Source of the DNA: a virus
Taxonomy: Duplodnaviria; Caudoviricetes
Reading direction: 5' to 3' (one strand)
Virus record (IMG/VR): IMGVR_UViG_3300037067_016777
Coordinates: 96,001-160,000 of that record
DNA length: 64,000 nt
The notes under the pieces were generated by a model, which was not told the origin of the DNA, did no database searches, and saw nothing but the letters and a program-made list of their open reading frames with translations. Both the position numbers and the translations under genes were made by a program. Shown piece after piece: positions 4,815-41,820 of this stretch. Within the stretch, counting starts at the first letter, position 1. Each line of letters starts with the position of its first letter.

Positions 4815-5579
4815 ATGGCACCTGCGAGCAAACACGAAGATTGCCCATTCAAAGACATAGTATTTTCCGATAAACCAGCTGCAGCCGTAGAGCCAGATCA
4901 TAGAATGGATACACGCGTTGGGCGATTAGAGGGTGTTGTTGAATCGCTGACTCGCGATATTCAAGAAGTTTCCCAAAATATTAGTATGATGGGAAAGGAA
5001 ATGGGAAGCTTCAGGGAGATGATTGGCGACACCCTCACAAGAATGCGAGAGGGATTCACCGCTCAAATCGAATCAGTTACCGATCGCCTCACTACCTCTG
5101 CTAAACCGCAATGGCAAAGTATTTTCGCTTTTGTGGCTATGGGCCTTACTGTGTTAGGTATGGCGGGTGCTGTTGTTGGAATGTTATTTAGCGGCCAGGC
5201 AGCCAATGTAGATCGCCTACAAAACGATACAGCTATTATTACTGAAAGGATGTTCGCATCTCAATATGAAAAAGGTAAAGCAGACGCCTTTGCTGCTGAG
5301 ACCAGCAGTCATTTAATCAAGTTGGACACAACTCTCCAACGAGAGATGGCTCTAATGCAACAAACTACTGATTCTAAGATAACATCTACTGATAATAATG
5401 TAAATGGATATATCGACAAAGTCCAAGAAGCCTTAAAGGATTTTCGCGCTTGGCGTTTGGAGCATGCGTCAGAAGGTGCAAAGATTGACGCTACATTAGC
5501 AGCAAAACAAGAAATAGTGTTTGAAAGATTGAAAAATTTAGAGAATAAAATAGATCTTTCAAACCAAAAAGCAAAATAA
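4815..5579 (+). CDS. Coiled-coil membrane protein
   Basis: Heptad-rich segments flank one hydrophobic helix (IFAFVAMGLTVLGMAGAVVGMLF). Confidence 0.6.
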   Translation: MAPASKHEDCPFKDIVFSDKPAAAVEPDHRMDTRVGRLEGVVESLTRDIQEVSQNISMMGKEMGSFREMIGDTLTRMREGFTAQIESVTDRLTTSAKPQWQSIFAFVAMGLTVLGMAGAVVGMLFSGQAANVDRLQNDTAIITERMFASQYEKGKADAFAAETSSHLIKLDTTLQREMALMQQTTDSKITSTDNNVNGYIDKVQEALKDFRAWRLEHASEGAKIDATLAAKQEIVFERLKNLENKIDLSNQKAK

Positions 5580-5586
5580 TATCTAT

Positions 5587-6330
5587 TTAGCGACCGTCTC
5601 GCACCTCTAATATCTTCTGTACCATTGGCCAAATTTTAATCTCACTATTTTTGAGGGTTGGCTCGGAAGATAGTTTGTGCAATTCTTGCTCGAACAACGA
5701 TTGATCTATAGCACCATTTCGCCAAGAATCTACTAATTTATAGAGCTTAGGCATTATCGAACCATTTATATCTTGGTGCTCGATTAATCTAATGTCCGCC
5801 TTACGTCCTTCTAATTCCTTCACGCTTCTGCTTGGCCTATGCCGAATTCTTGTATCAAAATCCGGAAGATCTGGCTCTTCTATATTACTATCTGGAATTT
5901 GTGTAGTGTTTTCTGGATCGTCTGAAATTTGTGCATTTGTTAAGGGGCTGAAATCTATTGGCTGCTGCTGACCATCATCACTTATTGCCGGTTTAGTTAT
6001 ACCATCTATTTGATCGTCGCCAAAATCATCCCAATCACCAGGCAATATATTCAGAACGTATCCTTCAGTTATTGCAGGAATCCAATAATTGCCATCTTTA
6101 TCAGAATACTCATGAAACATATATAATTTATCTGAATTTAATAGATCTAAAAATTCGTAATATTCAACAATGACATTTTGTTCTTTGCAAAATGTCGAGA
6201 ATGATTCATAGTAAATATTATTATTGTTTGATATGAATTGTCGGAGCAATTGCTCCGGTGATATATCAAAGGAATCAGTAATTAGCGATGCGATAGTCTT
6301 TGGATTATTCAAGGTTGCGTCTCCTATCAA
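5587..6330 (-). CDS. Hypothetical acidic protein
   Basis: 247-aa ORF; start uncertain. Confidence 0.55.
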   Translation of the reverse strand: MIGDATLNNPKTIASLITDSFDISPEQLLRQFISNNNNIYYESFSTFCKEQNVIVEYYEFLDLLNSDKLYMFHEYSDKDGNYWIPAITEGYVLNILPGDWDDFGDDQIDGITKPAISDDGQQQPIDFSPLTNAQISDDPENTTQIPDSNIEEPDLPDFDTRIRHRPSRSVKELEGRKADIRLIEHQDINGSIMPKLYKLVDSWRNGAIDQSLFEQELHKLSSEPTLKNSEIKIWPMVQKILEVRDGR

Positions 6331-6616
6331 TATATTTTAGCAAAAGATATTGATGAGGTAATAATGGCAGATATACTCACTAATGTAAATTCATTTCTAG
6401 CAGATCTTATGACTCGTCGTGGAGCCATAACGGCATCAGGGAATGCAAATCGTTTGGGTATTGAGCTAAACGGTGGTCGAATTATTGAAATGACACCGTT
6501 TGAACCTGATGCTGCGACTTATCGCAATTGGTATTATTATAATACTATGAGTAATGTATTGATGCGCAAAATAATTGTTAGCTCAAAGCCTGTGGTGGTT
6601 GCTTATTGGAAGCAAA

Positions 6617-25144: not shown

Positions 25145-26317
25145 TCAAGGATAGTGACAAACTTCTCCACGGAAACGAAACGTTGTACTATTTTCACCCT
25201 GTTCGATTATATAATTTGGTTGCAATGGTATCTTCCCACAACCTCCAGGCCCATCAACGACGAATGTTGGGATAGCATAACCAGAAGTATGCCCACGCAA
25301 TCCATCTATAATTTCTATTCCTTTAGAAATAGGAGTTCTGAAATGAGAGGTGCCCAAGACTGGATCACATTGATATAGATAATATGGTCGAACACGCATC
25401 ATTAATAAACGATGCATTAATGACTGCATTGCCTCAATGTTGTCGTTAATGCCAGCTAGTAGTACGGTCTGAGACCCTAGTGGTATTCCTGCGTCAGCGA
25501 GCATTGTGCAAGCTCTCGCACATTCAAGAGTACATTCATCTGGATGTGTGAAATGAATACTCATAAATACTGGATGATACTTTTTCAATATCTTACAGAG
25601 CTTTGGTGTAATACGCTGCGGTAGAACAACAGGCACCTTTGTCCCGATTCTGATGATTTCTATGTGAGGTATACGTCGTAGCTCGCGTAAGAGCGAATCA
25701 AGCTTACCGTTTCTGAATAACAGTGGATCACCACCAGATATAATGACATCTCTAATATTTGTGTTTTGTTTGATATATGCAATCGCAGTATCTAATTGCG
25801 ATTTTGTTGCTGGTTTTGCATTCTGCATACCAATCAATCTTGATCGCGTGCAGTATCGACAATAACTAGCACATTGACCAGCCGCTAATAGTAAAGCTCT
25901 ATCTGAATATCGGTGTACGAGTTTCGGAACTGGTGTATCCTCATCTTCAGCCAATGGATCTACTCTCTCGTCTTGCGTGATATGGAATTCACCTAAAGTC
26001 GGTATAACAGTCCGCCTGAGTGGTTGATTTGGGTCGTCTGGGGATATTAGGCTCAAATAATATGGTGTAATATTTATCGGAACCCTATGAGTAGCTTGCA
26101 GCCTGCCTAGTGCATGAACCTCATCACTGTTCAATTTGATAACAGATTCAAGTTGTTCCTTTGTAGTAAATCTGCTGGCTAGTTGCCACCTCCAATTGTC
26201 CCAGTCGCAATCTGGTACATCTGGAAAGTGTTGGTCTCGAAAGGCTCTAGTTTTAATTAGTCCTGTGCTCGGCGGTTCGGTATCTAAGACCGCCGTCTCG
26301 CCCTCTAAACCGTCCAT
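25145..26317 (-). CDS. kamA: KamA-family radical SAM lysine 2,3-aminomutase-like protein
   Basis: WRWQL, LVHRY.DR, CASYCRYCTR, SGGDPL, RIGTKVP, GSQTVLL.GIND, PYYLYQCD and GHTSGYAIP..VVD.PGG.GK; likely start 26317. Confidence 0.9.
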   Translation of the reverse strand: MDGLEGETAVLDTEPPSTGLIKTRAFRDQHFPDVPDCDWDNWRWQLASRFTTKEQLESVIKLNSDEVHALGRLQATHRVPINITPYYLSLISPDDPNQPLRRTVIPTLGEFHITQDERVDPLAEDEDTPVPKLVHRYSDRALLLAAGQCASYCRYCTRSRLIGMQNAKPATKSQLDTAIAYIKQNTNIRDVIISGGDPLLFRNGKLDSLLRELRRIPHIEIIRIGTKVPVVLPQRITPKLCKILKKYHPVFMSIHFTHPDECTLECARACTMLADAGIPLGSQTVLLAGINDNIEAMQSLMHRLLMMRVRPYYLYQCDPVLGTSHFRTPISKGIEIIDGLRGHTSGYAIPTFVVDGPGGCGKIPLQPNYIIEQGENSTTFRFRGEVCHYP

Positions 26318-26331
26318 TATTCCCGAGACTC

Positions 26332-28560
26332 CTATCTGATGTCGGTAATATGTGAAAACCGATCGGTTCGCTCGACTGTAATTTGATGTGGAAATACGTC
26401 GTGAAAACAATCACTATGAGATATTATGAAGATCGACTCGAACCGGGTTGCTAAATCATCTTTGATTACGCTTATCAACATTTGTCGACCAGCTTCATCT
26501 AATGCCTTCTCTGGTTCGTCTAACACGAGAATATTACATTGTGGGCCATGTATCCCTTGGTGTAGATCAAATACCGCAAACATAAAAGCTAAATCGGTTC
26601 GACCACGTTCTCCGCCGCTTTGGAAATCATAACCCCATAGATTACTATCGATTCCAAGTGAGTCAGTTAGAGATACCTTAATGTCTAAACCGAATAGATC
26701 TAAATAATGATGTAATCTTGAATTAAAATATGGTTGATGTCGGCTGATTAGGTAACTTTTAATTTTCCTGCGATCGCTGTAGGCTTTTTGGATATATTGT
26801 AAATGAACTAAAATAATATCATATGTGGTTAGGTCTTTCTGCTCAATCTTTACTTGATCTTCCTGTTGTTTGATATTGCAGCCTAAATTGATAATAGATT
26901 CAGCGTGTGTATTTTTTTCAGCAGATATACTGTCAGCATCTTCTTTAGCTTTACGTGCTGAATCTAGGATGGTATCGCGTTGAGCATTTGTAGCGTTTGC
27001 TTCGTTTACCGTTGTTTCTGGTTTTATGCTATCTAATTTGGCTTTCGTTGTTTTAACTAATTGTTCTAATTTCGTCTTTTTATCTTGCAATTCTATTTTT
27101 GTAGCATTTAGCTCTGCTTTCACAGACGTTTCTAAATCTTTTGCTGCCGCAGTCGACCTTTCTAACTGTATATCGATTGCAGATGTGAGAGTATCAGATT
27201 CTTTGTTTAATTCTTTGAGATTGTTTGTTGCGTCTAGCTCCAAAGCATCAATTTGCTCTCGGATTTTAGTGATTTCGCCATTTACAACATCTACCATATT
27301 GGCGAGTTTTTTAGCCTTGCTCTCTGCCGCTGCTTTAATAGCCTGCGGGCCGTTAATTTTACTATTGGCATAATCGACAGGCAGCTCCCGTTCACATTCA
27401 ACACATATTTTACCCGCTTTATCACGCCATTTTTTAATAATAGCATTTTGGGTGTCAATAATACCGTTTTGACTGGCTATTTGACCACGCAAATCTAGTA
27501 TCTTCTGGTCACAGATCTTTATTTCGTTTTCTTTGATCTTTTTATGTTGATTGACAGCACTTTGAGCAGCATCTTTTTTAGCTTGTATTAATTTAATAAC
27601 TTGATTTTTAGATTTTTGAGCTTCTTCCTTCAATCGCATAATTGTCTGCAGCTTGGTGTTCTCTGCGGCAGACATACTTGGTTCTATTGCGGTAATTTGA
27701 GATTCTAATTCATCAATTTGAGATTCTAATTCATCAATTTTAGCTTCAATTTTCGCTACTATAGTCCATTTTTTAGCTAGTGCCGCAACATTTATTAAGG
27801 TAAACTGGCGTGCTTGTTCTTCATACTCTGCAGCACGTTGAATTTTAGCTTTACGACGTTCGTCGCGAGTGCTTTCAAACAATGATGACGATTTCTGAGC
27901 TAAATCGAGTTGCTGTATTGAATTCGCGATGCTTGTATTCAAACTATCTATTTTGATTTTACGTTTTTCTTGCTCTTGTACTACTCTATCATATTTCGAC
28001 TTTGCAACCTCTGCATAGATTGACAAGCGGTCGATTCCCATAATTCGTTCGAAAGCTTGTCGTCTGGCTTGATCTTGCATTGCCAACCATGGTTGGCGAT
28101 ATTGAGAAAAGAACACAGAACCACAAAATAACCCATAATCGAATTTTAATTCTTTATCCAATAATCTCTGCTGATTGCTTGTTGTCGATAAAGTGCAATT
28201 AATAATTTCTTGAGTGCCACGCCTAAATAATAACTCTGTATCTCCTTGCCGTGTCCTAACGCGTGTCAACTCATCGCCATTTTTGAATTTTAGCGCGACT
28301 CTGGCGTTACTGTCTATGAACCAATTTAATACCTTATCACCTGGATTTTGATTGTATACTGTTTTCCCTGATAAACACCATAATACAGCCTGCATTAAGG
28401 AGCTTTTACCAGCCCCATTTGATCTACCATACGATTGCCCCGTTTTATCATAGACATTACCTACAATAAAGCATTGCTCCATCTTCGACAGCTTTAATAT
28501 GGAAGGATATGGTCCCCAACTGACAAATCCTTCTACGGCAATCGATTCTAGATCAATCAT
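26332..28560 (-). CDS. Rad50/SbcC/gp46-like SMC ATPase
   Basis: Walker A SNGAGKSS, coiled coil with CVEC zinc hook, SGGE signature, LVLDE Walker B and IISH. Confidence 0.9.
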   Translation of the reverse strand: MIDLESIAVEGFVSWGPYPSILKLSKMEQCFIVGNVYDKTGQSYGRSNGAGKSSLMQAVLWCLSGKTVYNQNPGDKVLNWFIDSNARVALKFKNGDELTRVRTRQGDTELLFRRGTQEIINCTLSTTSNQQRLLDKELKFDYGLFCGSVFFSQYRQPWLAMQDQARRQAFERIMGIDRLSIYAEVAKSKYDRVVQEQEKRKIKIDSLNTSIANSIQQLDLAQKSSSLFESTRDERRKAKIQRAAEYEEQARQFTLINVAALAKKWTIVAKIEAKIDELESQIDELESQITAIEPSMSAAENTKLQTIMRLKEEAQKSKNQVIKLIQAKKDAAQSAVNQHKKIKENEIKICDQKILDLRGQIASQNGIIDTQNAIIKKWRDKAGKICVECERELPVDYANSKINGPQAIKAAAESKAKKLANMVDVVNGEITKIREQIDALELDATNNLKELNKESDTLTSAIDIQLERSTAAAKDLETSVKAELNATKIELQDKKTKLEQLVKTTKAKLDSIKPETTVNEANATNAQRDTILDSARKAKEDADSISAEKNTHAESIINLGCNIKQQEDQVKIEQKDLTTYDIILVHLQYIQKAYSDRRKIKSYLISRHQPYFNSRLHHYLDLFGLDIKVSLTDSLGIDSNLWGYDFQSGGERGRTDLAFMFAVFDLHQGIHGPQCNILVLDEPEKALDEAGRQMLISVIKDDLATRFESIFIISHSDCFHDVFPHQITVERTDRFSHITDIR

Positions 28561-29914
28561 GTTTATCTAATTTTTTGAGTTTTCTTGATAGTTTTATCTT
28601 ATTAATACGGTCGCGATTTCTTATAGCGAGCGATTCCATACGTTCTATTAATAAACTGTCATATAGTGATAAGAATGGTATCTTGATATGCTGATGTTGG
28701 TGCAGCTTATGTCGATGTGTTAGTGATACCAAACCAAGTTCTCTCAGTCGCGCAAACGGCACCTTTCTAAAATCACTTTTACGGAACTTTTTACCGAGTG
28801 CGGTAGAAATTACCATTTCGGCGATAATTCTATCCATGTTCTTTAGTTGCTGCTCATCGGTCGTATGTTTTAGATAATAATCGATAATGGCCACCGAGCG
28901 AATGCGTTTTGAGATTACTCGGTTCGCTGACGCTACGCATTCAGCGACTTTATCCTTTGCATTTCTGATATGATATTTATCAGCTTTTAATCCGTACTTG
29001 AAGAAATTGATGATTTTGCGTTGTTTCTCGACCGGTAATTTGACCGCATCTTCTGAGAATTCTAGCCCCAAGAATTTAAATCGTCTGACAGTATCAAATC
29101 CAACGGATGGAACGAATGAAAAGTTCTGTGTATGTGATGCCTTGAATTTTAAGCCAAGCTTTGCTATCTCTATATCCATCAAAGCAGCTGCTTGTAGAAC
29201 TATAGCCGGATCTTCACCAGCTATCAGAATATCATCTGCATATCGGAAGTAGCGAACCCCAGGCAGACACATCAATTTATCGAGCCATGTCAGATGGATA
29301 TTAGCCAGCGTGCAAGCCAATGGGCTTCCAAACGGTATCCCAATTATAGCCTGTTTGATTGTGTCCTTATCAGTGCCATAATTGAAACGAACACGTTGCT
29401 CTAGCAATCGTATTACATCTGCATCGAATAATTCACCTAACTGCTGCAATAGAATATTATGGTTGATGTTGTAGAAGAATTGGGTAATGTCCCGCTTAGC
29501 AAAAAATTTACATTTCTTAATGGTTTTCGCTATTGTAGATTGACATCGATCTACACCGAGAGCACCCGACCTATAAGCATAGGAATTGGGTGAATACCAT
29601 TTGCTCAATAATTGGCTCAGGGCTGATGCTAACCACCGTTCGACGATTTTATCAGACCAAGTAGAAATATATATTTTGCGTTCCTTGCCGGATCGAATGC
29701 GTATATATTCTCGATAAGGGCTAAACGTGTGTTTGCGGACGCCATGGCTCAATGTATTCAAGGAATGATCTAGTTTACGCGCGAATTGCCAAAAGGTCTG
29801 GCCATCTAAAGATTTTGTAGATCCCCTATTTCGGTCGAAAGCAACCTTAGTTATAATAAACAATGCTGCACGGTCAAGCGGCAACTGATCAAAACAGTCC
29901 TTGATGGTAATCAT
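28553..29914 (-). CDS. Reverse transcriptase
   Basis: KERKIYI..WSDKIVER, NSYAYR, KRDITQFFYNINH, GIPFGSPLACTLANIHL, YFRYADDILI, FKFLG and C-terminal LGLVSL; ATG at 29914, TTG at 29953 possible. Confidence 0.93.
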   Translation of the reverse strand: MITIKDCFDQLPLDRAALFIITKVAFDRNRGSTKSLDGQTFWQFARKLDHSLNTLSHGVRKHTFSPYREYIRIRSGKERKIYISTWSDKIVERWLASALSQLLSKWYSPNSYAYRSGALGVDRCQSTIAKTIKKCKFFAKRDITQFFYNINHNILLQQLGELFDADVIRLLEQRVRFNYGTDKDTIKQAIIGIPFGSPLACTLANIHLTWLDKLMCLPGVRYFRYADDILIAGEDPAIVLQAAALMDIEIAKLGLKFKASHTQNFSFVPSVGFDTVRRFKFLGLEFSEDAVKLPVEKQRKIINFFKYGLKADKYHIRNAKDKVAECVASANRVISKRIRSVAIIDYYLKHTTDEQQLKNMDRIIAEMVISTALGKKFRKSDFRKVPFARLRELGLVSLTHRHKLHQHQHIKIPFLSLYDSLLIERMESLAIRNRDRINKIKLSRKLKKLDKHD

Positions 29915-29962
29915 TTGTCTTGCAAATATATCTTGAGATTCATACCAAAACAAATTGGAGTT

Positions 29963-30115
29963 GAGGTCGTCGTAAGTTTTCCCTGATGCTTCAAAGCTAT
30001 TGATGTCCTGTCACGCCTTAGGGAGGTGTTCAATGGTGCAGAAGCACATGTCATCCAAGACCTAACGGTTTTGGCCGTAGTCCTAGTTTCGAACTGCCAA
30101 ACTTACGACGACCTC
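29963..30115 (-). ncRNA. Putative retron-like msr/msd ncRNA
   Basis: Perfect 17-bp inverted repeat (29963-29979 and 30099-30115) enclosing two small stem-loops and a long hairpin, immediately upstream of the RT. Confidence 0.7.
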
Positions 30116-30123
30116 TTTTTATT

Positions 30124-30579
30124 ATGAACTTCACCAACAGATTATCTACAATACTGGAAACACGTGGTCTGAAACGAGCAGTCATAACCATGAAACGTGG
30201 TACAGTCATAGAGGCCGACCACGTAAGGATGGTAAAGACTAAAACAGGGAAAACCATTGTAGTAGTCGGTATTGGTCCCGGACGATTTGAGAAGATACAC
30301 AGATATAATAATAATCTGGGTGGTGTCGTTAATAGATTACGAGATTTCTATGGTCCTCATCGCTACATACCAACACCACAACAAGACAAGGCTACTGGCG
30401 AAGATCTAGGGGGTGTGTGTGAAAATTGTGGTCGTGGTTATATCGAATGTATGAACGATCCTTGCGAAAGGCCGGATCGGAGTTACGATCTACACCGCAT
30501 CTTAATCACTTACCCATTATTCAAAAGAATCATAACAATAAGGCCAGAAAATGTCGAGTCGATACGTGAGGTTCGATAA
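30124..30579 (+). CDS. Paralogue 1 of a tandem three-gene family
   Basis: Shared RG.(V/E)I.ADH.R..K...G.....VGI core; CENC insert. Confidence 0.7.
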   Translation: MNFTNRLSTILETRGLKRAVITMKRGTVIEADHVRMVKTKTGKTIVVVGIGPGRFEKIHRYNNNLGGVVNRLRDFYGPHRYIPTPQQDKATGEDLGGVCENCGRGYIECMNDPCERPDRSYDLHRILITYPLFKRIITIRPENVESIREVR

Positions 30580-31039
30580 ACAGCTATCTACTGTTCTTGA
30601 AGATATGGCACACGGTCGTCTGCACCCGGCGATCATAGTCACCGCGCGCGGAGTCGAGATTAAAGCTGACCATGCGCGTTGGATGAAGGGCAGAAACGGC
30701 AAAATATTTTTAGCGGTCGGGATTGGTCCTGCTATCATATCGTCGAAACCAAAGAAGCAGAATTGGAATTGTGGAATATTAAGTAAAGCACGCGATTTTT
30801 TCGCACCTCCTAGATTCGAACCTGTTAGTGATACAGACTCAGAAGGCAATTATGTGAGTAGATGTGTTACTTGCGGATTCTATCCACGTTATCATAAGTT
30901 AGGACACCCAGGTGTTTGTGCTCATTATACGCCAGGCGGTAAATACAATGCACATAAGAAATTGATTAAAATTAGGAAATTCCACAAGATCTTGACTATC
31001 CAGCAAGAGAACGTCCGCTCACTCAAATGGTTAGATTAG
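30566..31039 (+). CDS. Paralogue 2 of the tandem family
   Basis: Same core; CVTC...H...C insert; GTG start at 30566 likely. Confidence 0.7.
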   Translation: MRFDKQLSTVLEDMAHGRLHPAIIVTARGVEIKADHARWMKGRNGKIFLAVGIGPAIISSKPKKQNWNCGILSKARDFFAPPRFEPVSDTDSEGNYVSRCVTCGFYPRYHKLGHPGVCAHYTPGGKYNAHKKLIKIRKFHKILTIQQENVRSLKWLD

Positions 31040-31377
31040 CGGACTTTAACAAGCAGTTATCTGCTATTATTGAAAATAAAACTACTGGGCGTATGCGTCC
31101 AGCAATCATAATAACTGCACGTGGTGTAGAGATTAAAGCTGATCATGCTCGCTGGATGAAGACGACAAAAGGTAATGTTTTTCTTGCTGTTGGAATTCAG
31201 CCAAGGATTAAAGAAAGAGCAGTTCTATATAGCCGTGGCGGTGTATTACGTAAAGCAAGAGACTTTTACGCTCCAGAAGAAATTCAAAACTCAACACTTA
31301 AGCATATTGTCCGGCAGAGATTTTCTAAGATCTTGACTATTAAAAAAGAGAATGTGAAATCTCTAAATTGGCTTTAA
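31027..31377 (+). CDS. Paralogue 3 of the tandem family
   Basis: Same core without the Cys insert. Confidence 0.7.
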   Translation: MVRLADFNKQLSAIIENKTTGRMRPAIIITARGVEIKADHARWMKTTKGNVFLAVGIQPRIKERAVLYSRGGVLRKARDFYAPEEIQNSTLKHIVRQRFSKILTIKKENVKSLNWL

Positions 31378-40173: not shown

Positions 40174-41820
40174 TTAATCAGGTTGCCAATTGCGGAAACA
40201 TTTTTTACAGATTTCACACTGTTCGCCAGCTTTCATCTCACGAAATTTCTGGCAGTATTCATTTTGCCAAATTATATTATCTGTGATTATACCATTTTCT
40301 TTTCTTGGCGGTGATACGCTATTGCATATAGTTATTGATTTGTTTCCATTTATTCCAATCGTTTTCCATGGAAATAGACAATTTCTTCTGACTTCATCTT
40401 TGGCTATAAGCACAGGATATCGCAATATAATATCAGCATCCGGCAAAGCTTTAATGGCATCAATCGCGGTTTGATCGTCTTTTGTCAGAACTAAATCCCA
40501 AAATTTAATGTTTTCATTATCGTCGAAGTGTGGAAGAATATTGTGTAGATGCACACCTTGTACACCAAGTGATTTAGCTAATGCGATGAATTCTGCGATA
40601 TTTGATAGATTGTTTTTATTGCAGACACGAGACAGATAAGTTGGAACGCCCATATCAAGGCTAGCTCGAACGCCAGACAATGCCTGTTCGAATAAATCGC
40701 TTCCTGTAATCTGTTTATATTCAGTTGCATTTGATGCATTCAGGCTGATAGATAAATAATCTGGTAAGCATCCAGCATCTCGAAGCTGTGGTAAGCGTTC
40801 AGCTGCTAACGTCCCATTTGTGATGAGACCAACATAAAGATGTTTGCCATATGAGTGAAAGCTTTGTGCTGGTGTTTTAATATATCGCATCAGCGATACT
40901 AAGTTTTCACACATGAATGGTTCACCAAATCCACACACGCATAACGATTGTATTGTTGGAAACTTGAATAATAAATCATCAATAACACCAGACGTCATAT
41001 CTGGGAAATCTTCAAGCTCTTTGTGCTGCCGCCAGCAGAAATTGCATTTCAAATTGCATTTGTTAGTGATATATAATGTAGCTGAAATTGGTTGCTCTAG
41101 AAAACTCTGCATTTTCTGGTACTCCGATCGCTTATTGGTGAAATTCTTTTCTCCAAGTTGCAATCTATCTGTGCTAGCGATACTTGTATATGCTCCAAGC
41201 AATGCGAAGAGATTCAGCTCTGTAGGATCTCTTTTGAAAATCTCAAATAATTTTTTTGGAAGACTCTCTAGCCAAGTGTATCTAAATTCTTTGAATTTTT
41301 CCATTAAGTTTAGATATCGCTCGAAGATAAGCTCATTGCTCCATAATGGCGAATGCTTACCTACAATATCTTCCTTTAGCGTATAAGTGTATCCGTCTAT
41401 TTTCATCCTATCAAGTTGTTCAACTTCACATGACATATGACTAAGGTTGTATGGATAATTTTTGAAAATATCGAATTTATATATCTTGATACCATAGATA
41501 GCGAAATCAATATGAACGTCTCGCAGACGAAAAGCGACCATCGAACATTTAGAATCTGCACTAACAACTGCAGCATACATTTTCTCAATAGCATTAGAAT
41601 CTAATACCATATCTTCATCAACTTCAATATAATATGGTGTTTTACATCTAACTAGCATCTGTTGAAAAGCAACAGACATTGGACTATAATCTCTAATAAT
41701 ATCGATGGATGCTTTAACGGTCTGGTTCTTTAGAGCATCCAAACATAGTTGATAATTAGGATTAGCTCCGGAGCTAATAACAAATACCGTTATTACATTC
41801 GACAAATCTGGCTGGTCCAT
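40174..41820 (-). CDS. GT-A glycosyltransferase fused to a radical SAM/SPASM domain
   Basis: EVDEDM (DxD); CNLKCNFC, GFGEP, CLFPW...ICN...CEICKKC. Confidence 0.8.
   Translation of the reverse strand: MDQPDLSNVITVFVISSGANPNYQLCLDALKNQTVKASIDIIRDYSPMSVAFQQMLVRCKTPYYIEVDEDMVLDSNAIEKMYAAVVSADSKCSMVAFRLRDVHIDFAIYGIKIYKFDIFKNYPYNLSHMSCEVEQLDRMKIDGYTYTLKEDIVGKHSPLWSNELIFERYLNLMEKFKEFRYTWLESLPKKLFEIFKRDPTELNLFALLGAYTSIASTDRLQLGEKNFTNKRSEYQKMQSFLEQPISATLYITNKCNLKCNFCWRQHKELEDFPDMTSGVIDDLLFKFPTIQSLCVCGFGEPFMCENLVSLMRYIKTPAQSFHSYGKHLYVGLITNGTLAAERLPQLRDAGCLPDYLSISLNASNATEYKQITGSDLFEQALSGVRASLDMGVPTYLSRVCNKNNLSNIAEFIALAKSLGVQGVHLHNILPHFDDNENIKFWDLVLTKDDQTAIDAIKALPDADIILRYPVLIAKDEVRRNCLFPWKTIGINGNKSITICNSVSPPRKENGIITDNIIWQNEYCQKFREMKAGEQCEICKKCFRNWQPD

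Follow-up and report, generated by a model that had tools for sequence, protein, structure and literature searches.

A group-II-like reverse transcriptase of a large phage and a conserved, divergently encoded pseudoknotted RNA as its probable partner

Comparative analysis of a phage locus containing a reverse transcriptase (RT) gene indicated that a perfect 17-bp inverted repeat next to the gene is the predicted closing helix (P1) of a conserved, pseudoknotted RNA of about 153 nt. This RNA, which lies on the + strand and diverges from the RT gene, is judged to be, with somewhat more confidence than doubt, the cognate partner of a distinct family of group-II-like RTs. The locus lies in a window of 64,000 nucleotides, positions 96,001 to 160,000 of the IMG/VR virus record IMGVR_UViG_3300037067_016777 (Duplodnaviria; Caudoviricetes), and coordinates refer to this window. 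Large phages of lytic type carry the family, as do chromosomes of abundant soil phyla, and three gene arrangements were distinguished: the RNA is upstream of the RT and inverted relative to it (type A, the phage clade to which the window belongs), upstream and co-oriented (type B), or, in bacteria, just downstream of the RT. The features of the locus are as follows.

26332..28560, - strand: SbcC/Rad50-like ATPase (phrog_77, 1e-70)
28553..29914, - strand: reverse transcriptase gene, 453 aa from ATG 29914
29963..30115, + strand: structured ncRNA, both P1 arms included (type A, opposite in orientation to the RT; match to model R1)
29963..29979, + strand: P1 closing helix, 5' arm of the perfect 17-bp inverted repeat
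29979..29986, + strand: 5' strand of the pseudoknot, UUCCCUGA; its partner is the apical loop at 30018-30025
29987..30046, + strand: long hairpin of P2 (29987-92 / 30041-46), P3 (29996-30003 / 30030-37) and P4 (30012-17 / 30025-29), with apical loop UUAGGGAG at 30018-25
30047..30054, + strand: conserved junction CAUGUCAU, counterpart of AUGUAAG / AUGGAAG in relatives (alignment A4)
30055..30074, + strand: SL3 hairpin with UAAC loop (minimum-free-energy fold; stem covariation)
30073..30084, + strand: unpaired 3' segment GGCCGUAGUCCU, candidate template loop, aligned with the CGUUUUC loop of relatives
30085..30095, + strand: SL4, a small AGUU-UCG-AACU hairpin with GCC after it; covariation among type A copies
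30099..30115, + strand: P1 closing helix, 3' arm of the perfect 17-bp inverted repeat
30116..30120, + strand: U5 run immediately 3' of P1, RNA strand
30124..30579, + strand: small orphan protein, paralogue 1, 151 aa (family profile)
30551..31039, + strand: small orphan protein, paralogue 2, 162 aa
31027..31377, + strand: small orphan protein, paralogue 3, 116 aa

Covariation and strand of the conserved RNA

The arms of the inverted repeat are separated by 119 nt, and by our own estimate a 17-bp repeat is expected by chance in a 500-nt region at a frequency of about 1e-5. Compared with shuffled sequences, the region separating the two divergent genes has a much stronger predicted fold on either strand, with z values of -5.5 on the RT strand and -6.5 on the + strand. 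Nearly every phage relative carries an element of 134-177 nt in which the closing helix, 10-25 bp in every relative, differs in sequence from locus to locus.

A covariance model, R1, was built from 11 phage relatives of type B, in which the element lies on the RT strand, and included no type A sequence. In the window this model matched positions 29954-30093 on the + strand only (50.9 bits, E~1e-11), and the match was still confined to that strand at E values up to 10; all type A loci were likewise matched opposite to the RT. The preliminary description of this locus had proposed testing the upstream regions of homologues for covariation, and RNAalifold identified compensatory changes in 24 of the 28 pairs among the 11 type B copies. 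With 55 copies, 94.8% of cells paired and double changes were found at 27 of the 28 pairs, counts in which pairing is inflated because the alignment was fitted to the model; the covariation score was 0.75, compared with 0.25 in shuffles and at most 0.17 in slid controls. All P2 and P3 pairs were kept in the model alignment, the first P3 pair was invariably G:U (55/55 copies), and the segments forming the pseudoknot were complementary in 54 of the 55 copies, as 40 distinct helices. The SL3 stem covaries in six type A copies (L001, L002, L004, L244, L247 and L249) and is followed in relatives by about 12 unpaired bases. Most type A copies have a T run after the 3' arm of P1, a feature absent from type B and bacterial copies. 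The analysis supports the earlier proposal that the RT is accompanied by a dedicated structured ncRNA with a long inverted repeat as its closing element.

Comparison places the ncRNA on the + strand, divergent from and antisense to the RT, because the R1 match was + only, because G:U outnumbered A:C by 177:17 on the model strand, and because 51 of the 55 copies folded better on that strand. The same evidence stands against the retron layout on the RT strand that had originally been read here, and the - strand RNA on which that layout depended is probably not the one encoded. Since the RNA lies opposite to the RT strand, the locus is better regarded as a new RT-RNA system than as a retron. Other elements of the earlier reading fared differently. 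The repeat (29963-29979 / 30099-30115) was located exactly, and the long hairpin (29987-30046) is real and conserved; its wobble pairs were correctly noted to be G:T only on the + strand, but this had been taken as the mark of a cDNA strand, and a simpler reading is that + is the RNA strand. The CCAAAA-loop hairpin that had been placed at 30084-30057 is not conserved; relatives keep instead the UAAC-loop hairpin on the + strand (30055-30074), and the proposed unpaired branching G at 30098 has no conserved counterpart. The stem-loop described as AGUU-CGA-AACU exists as SL4, but had been read on the - strand.

No promoter for the type A RNA, which would have to sit within the start of the RT gene, was identified. 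Rfam 15 gave no relevant match at E up to 1 between positions 27000 and 32000 of the window, or in five other loci (L086, L087, L156, L160 and L248) at E up to 0.1. The RT-RNA pair was found neither in Rfam nor in the literature searched, in agreement with the earlier view that the system is undescribed.

The reverse transcriptase, its neighbours and their distribution

The listed RT open reading frame opens at TTG 29953, but the start is most likely ATG 29914, because homologues align from residue 14. The motifs SYAYR, YADD, FLG and LGLVSL are present, including the three (SYAYR, FLG and LGLVSL) previously noted, and the protein matched Pfam RVT_1 (5e-23). With the PADLOC profiles, which give no curated cutoff, matches included the generic RT (3e-37), UG17 (4e-34), UG26 (4e-29) and Drt9 (7e-27) profiles; RT_UG17 was the best-scoring named profile at 116 bits, by a small margin over UG26 (99.5), Cas1-RT (95) and Drt9 (92). 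A score of 43.5 bits (E 5e-12) on RT_UG27 does not place the RT in UG27. No curated NCBIfam cutoff was reached, the group II RT/maturase model TIGR04416 giving 131 bits, under its cutoff of 300. The AF2 model of the RT (pLDDT 89.8) had its best Foldseek matches in GsI-IIC, G2L4 and DRT9, with TM scores of 0.62-0.72 for group II, G2L4 and DRT9 RTs versus 0.41-0.43 for the retron RTs (Ec86 and type I-A). Retron profiles were similarly weak, the PADLOC retron models giving about 4e-11 or weaker (~1e-10) and NCBIfam retron_St85 giving 58.6 bits versus a cutoff of 235. The earlier judgement that the enzyme resembles group II RTs, and that it is no retron RT, is upheld.

By these profile and fold comparisons the RT is group-II-like, and its nearest ncRNA-using relatives are predicted to be UG17/DRT10, UG26 and DRT9. 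It is a free-standing group-II-like RT (G2L in the broad sense), nearest to group II RTs and without intron RNA; Rfam identified no group II intron RNA domains in the window region or in the same five loci. As had been stated before, no intron, DGR or Cas1 context was seen around the gene in the window.

Paralogue 1 of the small proteins encoded downstream of the RNA had no match in Pfam, PHROG, PADLOC or NCBIfam. A profile of this orphan protein finds the family beside the RT and ncRNA in nearly all phage loci, and only 42 relatives were found among 5.8 billion proteins, several of them on contigs equal in length to contigs that carry the RT. Its AF2 model (pLDDT 81.7) gave weak matches to Sm/Hfq/SH3-like barrels (Z 4-5.8), and the phage partner is accordingly modeled as an orphan family of small beta-barrel proteins that travels with the RT and the RNA. 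In bacteria a different protein, a zinc-ribbon protein of about 170 aa, is found in place of the phage family. The SbcC/Rad50 gene overlaps the RT stop codon by 8 nt in the window, but elsewhere only L001 and L002, the two closest relatives, have it beside the RT (in L001 a 1.1-kb insert intervenes), and the other phage and bacterial loci lack it; it is a matter of local synteny, outside the conserved module.

Searches of 95 bacterial loci gave 87 RNA matches, all on the RT strand and almost all directly downstream of the RT, the RNA overlapping the 3' end of the RT gene. The carriers include Acidobacteriota, Planctomycetota, Verrucomicrobiota and Elusimicrobiota, among others. Type B loci have an RT start codon that overlaps the 3' arm of P1, and one locus (L142) carries two units, each of an RNA and a small gene. 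A quick RT tree separated phage from bacterial RTs with a support of 100 and placed type A (86) and type B (81) each on one side of a branch, with RNA orientation changing once in the tree and constant within clades. Ten sampled proteins flanking the bacterial loci were all of housekeeping type and none was a defence gene, so that a defence role cannot be assumed; the bacterial setting hints at a role outside classical defence islands. Taken together, the sequence comparisons show the fold of the RNA, its strand and its link with the RT, and they strongly support a partnership of RT and RNA.

Candidate template and comparison with known systems

By analogy with DRT2, DRT9 and DRT10, the RT would bind the RNA as a scaffold and would copy a short segment left unpaired between SL3 and the 3' arm of P1 (30073-30084), which would give cDNA that is single-stranded and probably repetitive. 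The small proteins may act by binding this RNA or the product made from it. This segment is proposed as the template because its position resembles that of the template loop in DRT10 and DRT9, which follows a stable stem-loop near the 3' closing strand (PMC12632851, PMC12483538). Scaffold and template for short-template cDNA synthesis is, on this analogy, the most likely function of the RNA. In the phage, the system could serve to compete with other phages, in counter-defence or in DNA metabolism; the msDNA production and decoy function suggested earlier are guesses.

DRT10 consists of a UG17 RT, an ncRNA and SLATT (PMC12632851; bioRxiv 10.64898/2026.04.29.721553), and UG17 was formerly classed as the group-II-like G2L3 (PMC8632793). 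The present system resembles it as a three-part module of RT, ncRNA (about 140 nt in DRT10) and small partner protein. The RNAs are also comparable in architecture, with a long closing stem, small stem-loops and, past a stable stem-loop close to the 3' strand, an unpaired loop; DRT10 and DRT9 ncRNAs have a long central stem with small stem-loops (PMC12632851, PMC12483538). Unlike DRT10, the window RT scores only 116 bits on UG17, near the scores of other classes; no SLATT effector was found beside it, the neighbours having no Pfam or PADLOC match; the RNA is pseudoknotted, inverted here and downstream of the RT in bacteria; and the family occurs in lytic-type large phages and among bacterial housekeeping genes. 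It further differs from DRT10 in that A-B-A' direct repeats are not enriched in the 3' loop (3.0 versus 2.7 in shuffles) and that the C-terminal tail has no Tyr or Ser (hydroxyl) residue conserved in phage and bacterial clades alike, which leaves protein priming of the DRT9/10 style without support.

DRT9, a UG28 RT whose ncRNA serves as both scaffold and template, synthesizes poly-dA from a universally conserved U tract, a U4 template (PMC12483538). The full-length RT folds are similar (TM 0.62-0.67), a PDB profile match to DRT9 covers residues 45-374 of the window RT, and about 70% of the RNAs of the present family have a U-run (CGUUUU) in the 3' loop at the candidate template place. The window RNA, however, lacks a U4 tract there, with CGUAGUCC where these relatives have CGUUUUC, that is, UAGU in place of UUUU; the unpaired segment opens a UAGU-CC-UAGU repeat of period 6. 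The RT also scores only 92 bits on the Drt9 profile, and evidence of hexamers, tyrosine priming or defence was not seen in the present system.

Group II and G2L4 RTs gave the best sequence and fold matches over fingers, palm and thumb, with SYAYR, YADD and FLG in common, and G2L RTs likewise have no intron RNA. The window RT differs from group II RTs in falling below their NCBIfam cutoff, and from G2L4 in having a dedicated, conserved small RNA and a partner protein, both of which G2L4 lacks. A precedent for a phage-encoded class 2 UG RT with a structured ncRNA and orphan partners is UG27, found in gut phages with two orphan partner genes, a predicted RNA of three long stem-loops and no enrichment in defence islands (PMC9226505), whereas the present phages belong to other groups and come from groundwater, landfill and soil. 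Class 2 UG RTs were recently proposed as the nearest relatives of TERT (PMC12632851). The system shares with telomerase an RT with a dedicated pseudoknotted RNA, a short unpaired segment after a boundary helix and possibly an Sm-like partner protein, a resemblance only, as no repeat product, chromosome ends or TERT-specific domains were seen.

Alternative readings and implications

A wider and more speculative proposal, to which we give roughly a one-in-four weight in our thinking, is that these loci represent an undescribed RNP family, composed of a group-II-like RT, a pseudoknotted RNA of about 150 nt and a small nucleic-acid-binding protein. Its bacterial copies, in Acidobacteriota and other phyla, would sit among housekeeping genes (as judged from ten flanks) and diverged copies in large phages; the RT would add repeats or homopolymers in a telomerase-like manner from the short template after the boundary helix, in a role other than classical abortive-infection defence.

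It is also possible, though much less probable than the main reading, that the RNA serves the RT as a bound regulatory or scaffold element instead of a template, for example a translation operator like group II domain IVa, and that the RT acts on other substrates, as in G2L4-type DNA-end repair with the neighbouring SbcC/Rad50. The kinship of the RT with group II and G2L4 enzymes in sequence and fold, the overlap of P1 with the RT start codon in type B, the position of RNA copies always just 5' of a gene (small protein or RT), the translational coupling of RT and SbcC in the window and the housekeeping-like bacterial flanks are all consistent with such an element. Against it, adjacency to SbcC is confined to the three closest phages, the bacterial RNA comes after the RT gene, with whose 3' end it overlaps, an operator would not require a pseudoknotted RNA of 150 nt kept across phyla, and the characterised ncRNA-bearing relatives DRT2, DRT9 and DRT10 template from their RNAs.

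We regard as improbable a retron-like system on the corrected strand, in which the + strand RNA would be an msr-msd, P1 the a1/a2 helix, the pseudoknot and long hairpin the msr recognized by the RT, and the variable SL3 the msd, with 2'-OH priming beside P1 and a branched msDNA. Like retrons, the system has an ncRNA closed by a long inverted repeat whose sequence and length vary by locus, SL3 is the hairpin most variable in length and sequence, as msd stems are, the order of conserved core, variable hairpin and 3' arm agrees, and triplets of RT, ncRNA and accessory protein are typical of retrons (PMC7736814; type XI-like, with a WYL partner, PMC13712802). However, the RT is weak on all retron comparisons given above, the alignment has no conserved unpaired G beside P1 that could serve as a branching G, the G after the 5' arm is able to pair with the base opposite, and the RNA occupies the strand opposite to the RT in the window, whereas in bacteria it comes after the RT.

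The original - strand reading, with a1, G30098, two msr loops, msd hairpin, a2 and RT in succession, is very improbable: the region folds well on that strand too, and a sigma-70-like site (30148-30121) could launch a - transcript at the repeat, but R1 matches only the + strand, what are G:U pairs on the + strand become A:C mismatches on the - strand, one of the proposed hairpins is not conserved and the RT is not retron-like. Least probable of all is a DNA-level element (a recombination or inversion site, an origin or a bidirectional terminator), for although the arms are perfect over 17 bp and orientation differs between phage clades, the strand-specific G:U pairs, pseudoknot covariation and loop conservation point to a folded single strand, and orientation switched only once in the RT tree.

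For annotation, these results serve as a warning that a long inverted repeat beside an RT gene is insufficient for a retron call and that comparison must settle the strand. Retrons, DRT2, DRT9 and DRT10 have recently revealed new modes of DNA making, and RT-ncRNA systems have contributed to tools for genome engineering as well as to the debate about how telomerase arose. To these the present analysis adds an RT clade that falls below every curated cutoff and scores moderately on the group profiles tested, a pseudoknotted RNA family outside Rfam with very strong covariation, two unrelated orphan partner proteins, and three gene arrangements of which one is inverted. The many natural variants of the family provide material for working out its template and product.

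A conserved RNA adjoining the reverse transcriptase gene

The reverse transcriptase (RT) gene of the window is accompanied by a conserved, strand-defined and pseudoknotted RNA, which is genetically tied to RTs of this family in three arrangements. The perfect 17-bp inverted repeat reported in the preliminary description was found exactly at the position given there, in the 209 nt that separate the RT gene (- strand) from a divergent gene for a 151-aa protein (+ strand, starting at 30124). Within this gap, the central 169 nt (29955–30123) folded far more stably than shuffled sequences whichever strand was taken, with a slight advantage for the + strand (-65.5 versus -59.2 kcal/mol). Nearly all phage loci carrying relatives of the RT contained a 134–177-nt element that adjoins the RT gene and is closed by a helix of 10–25 bp, the sequence of which was different in each locus. 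The element folded better on the RT strand in type B loci (RNA upstream of the RT and co-oriented with it) and on the opposite strand in type A loci (RNA upstream and inverted, including the window), and the reverse complement of type A elements aligned with type B elements. Upstream of bacterial RTs, no convincing perfect long closing repeat was found; the bacterial RNA is located downstream. No Rfam family matched the RNA.

A covariance model, R1, was built from 11 type B copies, without any bacterial or type A sequence, a choice made to avoid circularity, and RNAalifold identified compensatory changes in 24 of the 28 pairs of this seed. In the window, R1 had a single match, on the + strand at 29954–30093 (50.9 bits, E about 1e-11), and no match on the - strand even at E values up to 10. 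The model matched every type A locus, always antisense to the RT, and gave 87 matches over 95 bacterial loci; each of these was on the same strand as the RT gene, and nearly all lay immediately downstream of it. In an alignment of 55 copies, which was fitted to R1 and therefore favours pairing, yet includes bacterial and type A sequences that are absent from the model, standard pairs made up 94.8% of cells, both sides had changed in 27 of the 28 pairs, and the covariation score was 0.75, versus 0.25 for shuffles and no more than 0.17 for slid controls. The first pair of helix P3 was an invariant G:U (55/55 copies), and the model strand gave the better fold in 51 of the 55. Complementarity between a pyrimidine strand following P1 or SL1 and a purine-rich apical loop, present in 54 of the 55 copies in 40 distinct forms, indicates a pseudoknot from sequence, by a test weaker than the others (own pairs averaged 6.2 and cross pairs 5.1).

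Features of the RNA in the window
29963–29979 / 30099–30115, + strand: helix P1
29979–29986 with 30018–30025, + strand: pseudoknot
29987–29992 / 30041–30046, + strand: helix P2
29996–30003 / 30030–30037, + strand: helix P3
30012–30017 / 30025–30029, + strand: helix P4
30047–30054, + strand: junction CAUGUCAU
30055–30074, + strand: stem-loop SL3, with a UAAC loop
30073–30084, + strand: unpaired GGCCGUAGUCCU
30085–30095, + strand: stem-loop SL4
30096 onward, + strand: GCC, then the 3' arm of P1, then U5

Most type A copies have a run of U after P1, a feature absent from type B and bacterial copies. An ACAAA(A/G)A-like motif recurs on the RNA strand 5–15 nt before the 5' arm of P1, both in the window (29935–29962) and in the type A 5' flanks of loci L001, L004, L164, L247 and L249, and possibly serves as a phage promoter element for the ncRNA. 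Two to four copies of the RNA, together with two or three paralogues of a small protein, are present in several phages. In locus L164 (33–712), one RT is preceded by four tandem copies that all differ in their closing helix; the three copies in L004 have the 3' loops UUCUUC, UACUAC and GUUUGUUUG.

The reverse transcriptase family

The group-II-like motifs named in the preliminary description are present in the RT of the window, which probably starts at ATG 29914, since every homologue aligns from residue 14. Hundreds of relatives were found, in a phage-like and a bacterial group. Phage-clade RTs (at least 42% identity) are encoded on phage-like contigs with genes such as those for T4 gp13, dUTPase, RNA ligase, thymidylate kinase and inteins, and only about six of them were present in the viral contig collection. 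Bacterial-clade RTs (35–39% identity) come mainly from Acidobacteriota, and also from Planctomycetota, Verrucomicrobiota, Elusimicrobiota and others. In a quick tree with SH-aLRT support, the split between the two groups had a support of 100, and types A and B each fell to one side of a branch (support 86 and 81), positions that fit a single inversion of the RNA.

Neither clade was claimed by a named profile in PADLOC and NCBIfam profile searches. The phage RT scored 116 bits against UG17, which was formerly classed as G2L3 (PMC8632793), 99.5 bits against UG26 and 92 bits against Drt9; bacterial RTs scored 111–137 bits against UG26. The NCBIfam group II RT/maturase model gave 131 bits, versus a cutoff of 300. 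The folds nearest to an AF2 model of the RT (pLDDT 89.8) were GsI-IIC, G2L4 and DRT9. Together, the profile scores and fold matches identify the RT as a free-standing, group-II-like enzyme close to the class 2 UG groups.

Partner proteins and genome setting

Downstream of the RNA lie three paralogous small genes (30124–31377) whose products belong to an orphan family. A profile of this family detected it next to the RT and RNA in nearly every phage locus, whether of type A or type B. Among 5.8 billion proteins, just 42 belong to the family, several of them on contigs equal in length to RT contigs. The phage small protein is predicted by AF2 (pLDDT 81.7) to form a split small beta-barrel. VIA-align gave weak matches to Sm, Hfq and SH3-like folds (Z 4–5.8), with WYL domains lower, a likeness that may reflect a common arrangement; Foldseek against PDB found no match below E 0.001, and the Protein Atlas gave no usable match. 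In locus L249 (5345–8332, - strand), the barrel domain (profile 133 bits) is fused within a 995-aa protein that is convergent with the RT and has no Pfam match. Some phage paralogues have a CxxC...C...C insert within the barrel (30400–30470 of the window, in up151, and the matching part of up162). The insert is reminiscent of the zinc ribbon in the bacterial partner, to which the paralogues are otherwise unrelated.

The gene order in bacterial loci is RT, RNA and then a gene for a protein of about 170 aa that has a zinc ribbon at its N terminus (115 of 152 loci); locus L142 has two units of RNA and small gene. By hhalign, the small proteins of phages and bacteria showed no detectable homology (probability 0.1%). 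A WYL-like nature of the bacterial partner is only a lead, based on a Protein Atlas feature match of 0.83 and on a motif that we take to resemble that of the WYL domain; no such domain was found by profile searches of Pfam and PDB. The bacterial RT frame often runs into the 5' half of the ncRNA (about 5280–5420 in L083, L086, L087 and others), where a recurrent FSPxPEAAA peptide corresponds to the translated pseudoknot strand and P2/P3, and the 3' end of the RT gene and the RNA therefore overlap. Ten flanking proteins sampled from bacterial loci were all of housekeeping types, including ComM/Mg-chelatase-like proteins, a CLC channel, DUF2207, TGT and GH95, and none was encoded by a defence gene.

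The window derives from a 269-kb virus record of a groundwater metagenome, and the stretch was listed in DNA metagenomes only, from groundwater and landfill. Its gene content resembles that of a large phage, with an SbcC-like protein (PHROG 77) and radical-SAM enzymes, and megablast of 20 kb against phage records gave no match. The SbcC/Rad50 gene overlaps the RT stop codon by 8 nt. This adjacency is confined to the two closest phages, and in L001 about 1.1 kb (5360–6451) is inserted between the two genes; SbcC/Rad50 was therefore attributed to synteny and, like the radical-SAM enzymes and a 630-aa neighbour, which are also common to close relatives only, was rejected as a part of the module. 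The two radical-SAM genes (25145–26410 and 40174–41820), one encoding a lysine-2,3-aminomutase C-terminal domain, and the glycosyltransferase, methyltransferase and aminotransferase genes near the RT in relatives suggest DNA or surface modification clusters. A phage-like contig with a type B module (L248) encodes a full-length tmRNA (1315–1698; Rfam RF00023, 102 bits, E 6e-39).

Possible role of the RNA and relation to known systems

The RNA would serve as scaffold and template for the RT, because the studied RT relatives that bear an ncRNA (DRT2, DRT9 and DRT10) all use it in this way. In DRT10 and DRT9, the template is a loop that follows a stable stem-loop, near the 3' strand of the closing stem (PMC12632851; PMC12483538), and the candidate template at the matching position here would be the unpaired stretch between SL3 and P1. 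For about 70% of family members this stretch is CGUUUU, reminiscent of the U4 template used by DRT9; in the window it is CGUAGUCCUAGU, a repeat of period 6. A-B-A' template repeats were not enriched in the family relative to shuffles and no C-terminal priming residue was conserved across the phage and bacterial clades, so that neither product nor primer could be predicted. An RNA that binds the RT as a regulator or scaffold, with the RT acting in DNA repair, is an unlikely alternative to the template role.

Retron-like synthesis of branched msDNA from the + strand RNA is improbable: retron models scored the RT much more weakly than the UG and group II profiles, and retron RTs matched its AF2 model with a TM of only about 0.42. 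The retron layout originally proposed, on the - strand, is very improbable; its CCAAAA-loop hairpin and its unpaired, supposedly branching G30098 were not conserved. The core intuition of that proposal, an ncRNA paired with the RT, was borne out, whereas its strand, its parsing of the structure and the retron label were not. A DNA-level element is scarcely credible, the 55 copies containing 177 G:U versus 17 A:C pairs.

The family was not found in PADLOC, NCBIfam or Rfam, nor in the UG/Abi survey, a review of RTs (PMC8632793), two DRT10 reports or the SPIRE retron survey (PMC13712802). According to the review of RTs, one G2L subgroup sits within queuosine and glycosyltransferase gene clusters (PMC8632793); its membership may overlap with that of the phage clade. 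A phage-borne class 2 RT with a predicted RNA has a precedent in UG27, which is, however, a different RT group. In conclusion, the family is a system of RT, ncRNA and accessory protein, a kind of system that is itself already known.
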